Part shown: positions 1-497 of the stretch, in pieces
How the letters are laid out: each line of letters opens with the position of its first letter
Position numbering within the stretch: the first letter of the stretch is position 1
Source: Escherichia coli
Lineage (GTDB): Bacteria > Pseudomonadota > Gammaproteobacteria > Enterobacterales > Enterobacteriaceae
Strand: one strand, 5' to 3'
Length of the DNA: 497 nucleotides
Assembly: GCF_003334335.1 (NCBI RefSeq)
Contig: NZ_QOWQ01000184.1
Position numbers and translations under genes: made by a program
The notes under the pieces: model-generated
Told to the model about the DNA's origin: nothing
The model's input: only the letters and a program-made list of their open reading frames with translations
Databases searched by the model: none

Positions 1-41
1 TCGGTATAACCGAGTAACTGGCGGGTCGTAAACAATCCCAT
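1..41 (-). CDS. E: Major capsid protein, lambda gpE family (5' end only; gene continues beyond window start)
   Basis: Minus-strand ATG at 41-39 followed by an open frame to the window edge, encoding MGLFTTRQLLGYT. This resembles the lambda gpE N-terminus MSMYTTAQLLAAN (M, TT, QLL shared). An AAGGA Shine-Dalgarno sits 8 nt upstream. The start lies 57 nt downstream of the D-like stop, close to the lambda D-E spacing as I remember it. Only 13 codons are visible, so the call rests on synteny plus a short N-terminal match. Confidence 0.75.
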   Translation of the reverse strand, partial: MGLFTTRQLLGYT

Positions 42-49
42 AAATCAGT

Positions 50-54
50 TCCTT
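50..54 (-). promoter_or_regulatory. Shine-Dalgarno (AAGGA) for the E-like major capsid gene
   Basis: Minus-strand sequence AAAGGA-ACTGATTT-ATG, an 8-nt spacer to the start at 41. Confidence 0.6.
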
Positions 55-69
55 TCATTCAGAAATCAG

Positions 70-91
70 TCAGGCCAACGCGGTGGCCTGA
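70..91 (-). other. Intergenic GC-rich stem-loop between the D-like and E-like genes (possible mRNA stability or attenuator hairpin)
   Basis: Perfect inverted repeat: on the + strand tcaggcca (70-77) and tggcctga (84-91) flank a 6-nt loop acgcgg (78-83). On the mRNA (minus) strand this is UCAGGCCA-CCGCGU-UGGCCUGA, an 8-bp stem with six G/C pairs, starting 8 nt after the D stop codon. It is followed by CUGAUUUCUGA, not a clean U-tract. Confidence 0.55.
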
Positions 92-98
92 TAACGTG

Positions 99-446
99 TT
101 ACGGCAGCGCCGCGTGACTCAGGGCTGTGCCGACAAAGGCGTTGGCCTTTTTGTGTTCATCCACACTTTCAGGCCAGCGGATTGCCTCCGTCGCAAAGGT
201 CCCCGACTTGTAATACGTCAGCACCGTCTCTGTGCCTTCAAGCGGCAGTACCAGTATGCCAGCCGCACTACCGGCTTTCTGTCCGTCCCAGACCACCAGT
301 TTCCCGCTGGCTTCATCCAGCATCAGGGGCGTCAGTGCCGGTGTTGCCTGAGAAATCCCGCTGCTGCCTGTGGCGGTATGAGCCGGATCATTACCGGCAA
401 AAATACGTACTTCTGCACGTTGTTCAGTGATGGTTTTCGTTACCAT
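99..446 (-). CDS. D: Head decoration protein, lambda gpD family (complete, 115 aa)
   Basis: Minus-strand ORF from the six-frame track: ATG at 446-444, TAA stop at 101-99. The product aligns by eye with lambda gpD as I recall it, including NDPAHTAT, TPLMLD, KLVxWDG, GIL, YKSGTF, WPE and AFxGTA motifs; roughly half of aligned positions are identical. Length (115 aa against 110 in lambda) and position immediately upstream of a gpE-like start fit the lambda gene order. GAGG Shine-Dalgarno lies 10 nt upstream of the ATG. Confidence 0.9.
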   Translation of the reverse strand: MVTKTITEQRAEVRIFAGNDPAHTATGSSGISQATPALTPLMLDEASGKLVVWDGQKAGSAAGILVLPLEGTETVLTYYKSGTFATEAIRWPESVDEHKKANAFVGTALSHAALP

Positions 447-497
447 ATTGTAAAAACCTCATATTGATGGTCAGCACTGACTTCATGGCATGGCCAT
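440..497 (-). CDS. Probable 3' end of the upstream head gene (position of lambda C/Nu3 protease/scaffold); partial, frame uncertain
   Basis: On the minus strand two frames are open from the window edge into the D start region. One ends with TAA at 442-440, overlapping the D ATG as ATGGTAA; the other ends at a TGA about 20 nt inside D. The third frame is closed by TGA stops at 485-483, 476-474 and 461-459. Lambda gene order predicts a scaffold/protease gene ending just before D. About 19 codons are visible and the correct frame cannot be chosen from the sequence alone; the coordinates given are for the frame ending at 440. Confidence 0.25.
   Translation of the reverse strand, partial: WPCHEVSADHQYEVFTIW
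457..460 (-). promoter_or_regulatory. Shine-Dalgarno (GAGG) for the D-like gene
   Basis: Minus-strand sequence GAGG-TTTTTACAAT-ATG, a 10-nt spacer to the start at 446. The site sits inside or at the very end of the upstream ORF. Confidence 0.55.

Follow-up and report, generated by a model that had tools for sequence, protein, structure and literature searches.

A GC-rich hairpin lies between the head decoration protein gene (shp, a homologue of lambda D) and the major capsid gene (gene 7, a homologue of lambda E) on the minus strand of the window, by which is meant the whole 497-nucleotide stretch of Escherichia coli DNA that was analyzed. This element is the phage-21-lineage allele of a conserved D-E intercistronic hairpin and is homologous to that of lambda. 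In function, comparative analysis suggests that it is most likely a decayed intrinsic-terminator-type hairpin, read through by Q-modified polymerase, that would protect the 3' end of the D segment, a reading given a probability of roughly 0.45. The D-E hairpin belongs to a recognized class of terminator-like late-operon hairpins; it is an ordinary feature and contradicts nothing current. No description of it was found in a search of the literature and of annotation, and its lambda counterpart has been visible in sequence for decades. Of 5426 complete E. coli genomes, 1866 (about one third) carried a copy of the window at ≥90% identity, yet the element is absent from the carefully curated phage 21 annotation.

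Structure and setting of the hairpin

The window is a phage-21-type head module, and its minus strand represents the end of a lambda-like head operon. Its sequence matched Escherichia phage PhiR5_1 and a prophage of E. coli 2015C-3121 at 100% identity and phage 21 at 96.6%. PF02924 homologues of the D protein encoded in the window showed 96% identity. The following features were assigned.

99..446, minus strand: head decoration protein gene (shp / lambda D homologue), 115 aa, with stop codon TAA at 101..99 (ORF list; Pfam PF02924; head decoration or D annotation in PhiR5_1 and phage 21)
92..98, minus strand: linker CACGUUA, 7 nt, from the D stop codon to the hairpin (sequence)
70..91, minus strand: hairpin, with 5' arm 91..84 UCAGGCCA, loop 83..78 CCGCGU, and 3' arm 77..70 UGGCCUGA (folding, shuffles, and covariation across lineages)
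78..78, minus strand: allelic site, U in the RNA of the window versus G in phage 21 (haplotype comparison and folding)
58..69, minus strand: weakly U-rich tail CUGAUUUCUGAA, a degenerate U-tract (sequence and tail scoring)
49..55, minus strand: Shine-Dalgarno region AAAGGAA of the major capsid gene (matching ribosome binding site [RBS] annotated in phage 21 records)
1..41, minus strand: 5' end of the major capsid gene (gene 7 / lambda E homologue), with ATG at 41..39, encoding MGLFTTRQLLGYT... (MGLFTTRQLL...) (sequence and phage 21 annotation)

A preliminary description of the window reported an 8-bp perfect, GC-rich stem with a 6-nt loop, and this was borne out by sequence and folding. Read from 91 to 70 on the minus strand, the hairpin contains eight perfect pairs, five of which are G-C. 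Folded alone, it had a free energy of -13.0 kcal/mol (z = -4.2), which was equalled by 0 of 200 shuffles. The fold of positions 42-98 (minus strand) that the preliminary description had proposed returned the same helix at -15.6 kcal/mol (z = -1.9), and the hairpin was the dominant helix both in this fold and in that of positions 1-160. When the 57-nt spacer between the D stop codon and the E start was shuffled, an equally stable hairpin arose in 3 of 3000 dinucleotide and 16 of 5000 mononucleotide shuffles. The hairpin starts 7 nt past the D stop codon and ends 28 nt ahead of the E ATG; the distance of about 30 nt to the capsid start given in the preliminary description therefore stands, while the start codon lies at 41..39 rather than at about 40..38. 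The 8-bp stem and 6-nt loop fall within the dimensions of intrinsic-terminator hairpins (GC-rich stem of ~5-14 bp and loop of 3-8 nt). A scan of the window against Rfam 15, with E values up to 10, returned nothing at 70-91 and three sub-threshold chance matches elsewhere.

In the 160-nt fold (z = -2.1), the 3' coding region of D was also paired over a long range with the start of E. The CCC...GGG core of this pairing was, by eye, absent from the Gifsy-1 sequence. The hairpin loop, CCGCGU (78-83), is perfectly complementary to ACGCGG (110-115) in the last codons of D, which constitutes a potential loop-to-upstream pairing. This complementarity is probably due to chance, since it is lost in the common CCAUGG allele.

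Several other matches were recorded in the window. Positions 1-42, which cover the capsid gene start, had a 42-nt, 100% identical match in Aeromonas phage AP1 (MT713136, 250152-250193), in an unannotated stretch near the end of the 254-kb record; this match may be an assembly or contamination artifact. A sigma-70-like promoter match was found at 447-474 on the minus strand (CTGACC, 16-nt spacer, and TACAAT; 9 of 12 positions). A moron-like unit made up of promoter, D, and terminator was considered and rejected, because this sole promoter-like match (474..447) stops one base before the D start codon, too close to it to give a translatable D mRNA. A terminator-like sequence, AAAGGC-GTTG-GCCTTT followed by TTGTG, was found at 135-150 on the plus strand, antisense to D; it falls within the codons of a conserved KKANAF motif and may be incidental. 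A weak terminator-like site, ACGTGCAGAAGTACGT followed by ATTTTTG (420-405, minus strand), falls within the D coding sequence, in its 5' part.

Relatives and covariation of the stem

Loci encoding D homologues were gathered from viral and genome collections (287 loci) and by DNA pattern search (120 more). The stretch from D stop to E start was taken from 281 loci and yielded about 60 distinct spacers, with D proteins that were 48-100% identical. Nearly all of these distinct spacers contained a GC-rich hairpin in the same place (7-13 bp; -8 to -21 kcal/mol), which was kept even where the D proteins were only 48-54% identical (Erwinia and Hafnia); the stem was disrupted in a few low-frequency alleles. 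Among all hairpins of ≥6 bp in the 2.7-kb locus, the D-E hairpin ranked 1st to 4th in 15 of 16 representative hairpin-bearing lineages and 8th in the other (L202). The D-E spacer of Providencia alcalifaciens prophages (L006-L008) is 26 nt long and is without the hairpin, so that at least one lineage can do without the element. The hairpin also occurred beside a 96%-identical E. coli-type shp gene on a contig of a metagenome-assembled genome labeled as the Actinobacterium “Collinsella sp.” (JAIJJM010000092.1; locus L004); this contig is most likely a misbinned fragment of an E. coli prophage.

The late genes of enterohemorrhagic E. coli (EHEC) prophages encode HnrS, a multicopy small RNA (sRNA) that is transcribed from a start site of its own and is 98% confined to EHEC/EPEC (10.1101/2025.11.27.690950). 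Identity of the D-E hairpin with HnrS was rejected, as the hairpin occurs in UPEC and commensal strains too and the HnrS preprint (10.1101/2025.11.27.690950) gives no sequence or location linking the two. A preprint on Hfq RIL-seq in lambda reported no sRNA from the 3' end of D (10.1101/2024.10.31.621285).

The preliminary description is right that lambda has a GC hairpin followed by a T-run at the D-E position (AAAGGCCGC-CUGU-GCGGC and then U7). The lambda hairpin (NC_001416, 6097-6118; AAAGGCCGC-CUGU-GCGGCUUUUUUU) likewise lies between the D stop codon and the E RBS, and the GGCCNC...GNGGCC core aligns between the two. The stabilities are similar, at -12.2 kcal/mol in lambda and -13.0 kcal/mol in the window. 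The lambda element differs in having U7 directly after the stem and a 4-nt loop, compared with ACUGAUUUCU and a 6-nt loop in the window, and one G-C pair of the lambda stem corresponds to A-U in the window.

Thirty-one distinct hairpins were aligned on the shared GGCC(G/A)C...G(C/U)GGCC core, and the eight pairs of the window were scored. Four sequences in this alignment are misaligned on the 3' arm, which makes its figures conservative: 89% of cells were paired, compared with 27-46% when the 3' partners were slid by 1-3 columns, both-sided changes were found in six of the eight stem pairs, and the covariation score was 0.398 versus 0.205 for shuffles, a value reached by 0 of 500. RNAalifold independently recovered the 7 inner pairs of this stem, with compensatory changes at 5. 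Pair 21-28 is A-U in the phage-21 type and G-C in most lineages, with G·U and A·C intermediates present only as low-frequency alleles. The comparison of homologous D-E spacers by which the preliminary description proposed to check the stem thus showed it to be kept, with compensatory changes. Non-Watson-Crick stem pairs on the sense strand comprised 20 G·U and 3 A·C, although the stem base beside the U-tail accounts for many of the G·U pairs and the internal pairs alone give about 7 G·U versus 3 A·C. Transitions in duplex DNA would yield G·U and A·C equally, so the excess of G·U points to a hairpin that folds in sense RNA rather than to a symmetric DNA site.

The U-tract and termination in the late operon

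The sequence downstream of the stem is CUGAUUUCUGA. The tail after the last G-C pair, ACUGAUUUCU, contains 5 U in 10 nt, and its first four nucleotides are A, C, U, and G (one U). Tails of the phage-21 lineage were the poorest in U among the D-E hairpin family: values per 10 nt were 6-7 in lambda-type loci, 6 in Gifsy-1, 8 in Erwinia and L256, and 9 in L202 (a range of 8-9 for L256, L202, and Erwinia). The weak U-richness claimed in the preliminary description was confirmed by this comparison. The T-tail score was 1.1 for the window, 1.9-3.2 for lambda-type loci, and 4.1 for Erwinia, and canonical U6-U7 tails were found in the lambda, Erwinia, Hafnia, L191, and L202 homologues. With its U7 tail in lambda and in the Erwinia and Hafnia relatives, the hairpin has the look of a classic intrinsic terminator. 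Intrinsic terminators are expected to have a U-tract of ~7-9 nt directly 3' of the stem that is U-rich proximally; the site in the window was listed by a permissive terminator scan (≥5 T within 8 nt, counted from 0-2 nt past the stem), but its 5 U in 10 nt, its A, C, U, G start, and its T-tail score fit such a U-tract doubtfully to poorly. Across the family, the U content of the tail varies from 5 to 9 per 10 nt without loss of the stem, which suggests that the stem, and not termination, is the conserved feature. Judged from its sequence, the hairpin of the phage-21 lineage, in which the U-tract has decayed, would be a decayed terminator-type element and a feeble terminator at most.

In lambdoid phages, transcription of the late operon is carried out by Q-modified polymerase, which ignores terminators. 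Structural work on Q21 (PMID 31455742) is cited in the phage 21 record. That record (OL657228; 194 features) has late-operon terminators annotated at I-J and after J and none in the D-E spacer; the hairpins at D-E (6303-6324) and E-FI (7389-7409) are both unannotated, despite a U6 run at E-FI. The I-J and post-J terminators of phage 21 and the intra-operon terminators of P22/L resemble the D-E element in being GC hairpins in the few sizeable spacers of a Q-antiterminated late operon. Those sites have clear U-runs, such as GGGCGCCAGAAATGGCGCC followed by UUUUUUAUUU, whereas the D-E hairpin is without a clear U-run.

The phage L genome paper (10.1101/2020.10.05.325894) describes terminators within late operons as common but of unknown role, and suggests partial termination or the stopping of non-antiterminated transcription. 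A working but leaky intrinsic terminator at D-E, which would stop polymerase not modified by Q (stray transcription of a silent prophage) or partly attenuate E and the genes beyond it, is possible but rather unlikely. The listing of the site by the terminator-like scan, the canonical tails of the homologues named above, and the similar terminators annotated elsewhere in the phage 21 late operon are in keeping with such an activity, and both of its roles are among those named for phage L (10.1101/2020.10.05.325894). The A, C, U, G start of the tail, its low U content and T-tail score, and the missing annotation at D-E argue against it. It is also established that Q-modified polymerase reads through terminators, which makes attenuation during lytic growth unlikely, and attenuating E relative to D has no obvious rationale, since both are needed at about equal copy number. 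Given so weak a site and a Q-modified polymerase, attenuation is less likely than 3'-end protection.

A second conserved GC hairpin with a U-rich tail was found downstream of gene E in nearly every lineage, Providencia among them. Its sequence in phage 21 is GCGGGGGCGAAAUGCCCCCGU followed by GUCUUUUUUC. Its locations are as follows.

2993-3013 of locus L001 (phage 21): post-E hairpin
2617-2634 of locus L095 (lambda): post-E hairpin
E-FI spacers of loci L206, L191, L193, L011, and L006: post-E hairpin

With hairpins after both D and E, gene E is usually bracketed by two hairpins. The late genes of phage 21 are otherwise tightly packed, with overlaps. All four of its late-operon spacers longer than 50 nt (D-E, E-FI, I-J, and J-stf) contained a hairpin of ≤-15 kcal/mol. 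Of the 30 strong hairpins, 4 fall in the 1.8% of the sequence that these spacers make up, compared with an expectation of about 0.5 (Poisson P ~0.002). The same pattern of hairpins in long spacers was observed in lambda.

Proposed protection of the D segment and competing readings

Because Q-modified polymerase reads through terminators, any effect of the hairpin in the lytic stage must be post-transcriptional. We infer read-through by Q-modified polymerase, cleavage downstream of the stem, and a role as an exonuclease barrier. During lytic growth, Q21-modified RNA polymerase would make the late operon by reading through the hairpin, which would form in the sense-strand late mRNA between the shp/D and 7/E cistrons by refolding behind the polymerase. 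An endonucleolytic cut in the AU-rich stretch just downstream would then leave the hairpin to block 3'-to-5' exonucleases, and the D-containing upstream segment may live longer through 3' protection of the malE-malF type. The post-E hairpin may do likewise for E.

Intercistronic structures that are protective at the 3' end are documented in E. coli operons; in the malE-malF model, PNPase and RNase II are halted at the hairpin after an endonucleolytic cut downstream of it (PMC5927463). The D-E arrangement is similar in that a stable stem-loop lies just downstream of a high-demand cistron and is followed by AU-rich single-stranded RNA with an RNase E-like motif. By eye, GA|UUU (67-63), 4 nt past the stem, matches the RNase E motif RN|WUU (PMC5927463), a short match that is expected by chance in U-rich sequence and carries little weight; no RN|WUU motif was found by eye in the 7-nt linker or the last D codons. 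The malE-malF element is a REP sequence; the D-E hairpin matched no Rfam family. The D-E hairpin also resembles the 5' protective hairpin of papBA in lying upstream of a highly expressed structural gene, here E, which has a 3' hairpin too (model in PMC5927463). The papA model requires cleavage directly upstream of the hairpin, and at D-E the RN|WUU motifs lie downstream instead. Conservation of the stem independently of the tail, the downstream GA|UUU, and the 3' hairpin of E itself fit with the model of 3' protection.

Against the protection reading, weakened alleles are common, Providencia is without the hairpin, and within the phage-21 clade the stem is no more conserved than the spacer. 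The argument that an abundant protein needs a stabilizer is also incomplete, as D and E are required in about the same number and no hairpin follows the abundant major tail gene V. That the hairpin sets the D:E ratio is speculation.

A broader proposal, which we hold only tentatively and consider doubtful, is that the post-D and post-E hairpins form a conserved punctuation system in which the stoichiometry of capsid proteins is set post-transcriptionally by adjacent RNase E cleavage. Q antitermination would make transcription uniform, and long-lived D and E segments capped by hairpins would result. U-tracts would be dispensable under such a system and could therefore decay, as in the phage-21 lineage. 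If the proposed protective role is true, the phage would tune its two most abundant head proteins, which are encoded in one antiterminated 20-kb transcript, by RNA stability rather than by promoters or terminators, and the persistence of terminator-like hairpins in late operons would be accounted for. The wider value of the element lies in the conservation of hairpins after both D and E and in a stem that is kept here while the U-tract has decayed, a case in which a few mutants and the available Term-seq data could put the purpose of late-operon terminators directly to the test. Term-seq of EHEC Sakai has been published (PMC7547250).

Variation within the phage-21 clade was examined in 96 haplotypes from 217 loci. 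In phage 21, the hairpin sequence is a perfect 22-bp palindrome, UCAGGCCAC-CGCG-GUGGCCUGA, with 9 pairs and a free energy of -16.8 kcal/mol; the G allele reduces the loop to CGCG. In the window, a single G-to-U change at 78 opens the ninth pair, C-G, at a cost of 3.8 kcal/mol (-13.0 versus -16.8 kcal/mol). This U allele was carried by 31 of the 96 haplotypes. Other weakened alleles had A·C or C·A mismatches or a 1-nt deletion. The mean minor-allele frequency was 0.008 in the stem and 0.010 in the rest of the spacer, and in this young clade the stem was therefore no more conserved than the remaining spacer; the whole spacer is nearly invariant and the loop alone varies, so that this population-level comparison says little about selection.

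These data bear on whether the hairpin is a decaying relic of an ancestral terminator that persists through short time or hitchhiking, without present function. An already degenerate U-tract, within-clade conservation of the stem equal to that of neighboring spacer positions, frequent destabilizing alleles, and complete loss of the hairpin in Providencia would all be expected of a relic. This explanation is nevertheless improbable, as the stem is kept via compensatory changes (e.g., G-C versus A-U at pair 21-28) and the hairpin is retained across lineages in which the spacers are otherwise unalignable.

A translational role, in which the hairpin would make E initiation independent of D termination or keep the E RBS open by locking up GC-rich sequence, is very unlikely. 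The geometry is compatible with such a role: with 28 nt between it and the AUG, the stem falls outside the expected 30S footprint, and ribosomes terminating on D, whose stop codon is 7 nt upstream, would melt the stem. In silico, however, the unpaired probability of the E RBS (-20 to +12) of the window type was 0.48, compared with 0.45-0.51 when the hairpin was deleted or either arm was complemented. Of 13 lineages, 8 changed by ≤0.10; larger shifts, of up to 0.20, went in different directions, there was no consistent sign overall, and Providencia copes with a 26-nt spacer and no hairpin.

A DNA-level palindrome, serving as a site for a dimeric protein, a cruciform, or a hot spot for recombination or insertion, would suit the perfect 22-bp palindrome of phage 21, the change of CCGCGG to CCATGG, which is symmetric even at center positions unable to pair in RNA, and the insertion of IS200C 6 nt past the hairpin in two loci, but it can hardly be credited in view of the asymmetric 3-6 nt loops of other lineages (ACA, GAA, GAU, CUGU, and CUCAGA), the broken symmetry of the window allele, and the sense-strand excess of G·U over A·C, which a duplex-DNA site predicts to be about equal.

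The loop (78-83) was a hot spot of polymorphism, with a mean minor-allele frequency of 0.158 compared with ~0.01 in the stem and spacer. Loop variants included CCGCGG, CCGCGU, CCAUGG, CCACGG, CUGCGU, and CCGCGC. The change from CCGCGG to CCATGG retains the perfect 22-bp DNA palindrome, with CCACGG as a one-step intermediate. The hot spot may result from quasi-palindrome-templated mutation or from deamination of bases in an extruded loop. The IS200C copies in loci L071 and L073 were inserted at CTGATT|GTGCACAG..., splitting D from E, and the 146-nt junction sequence was a 100% match to IS200C tnpA regions in many E. coli genomes.
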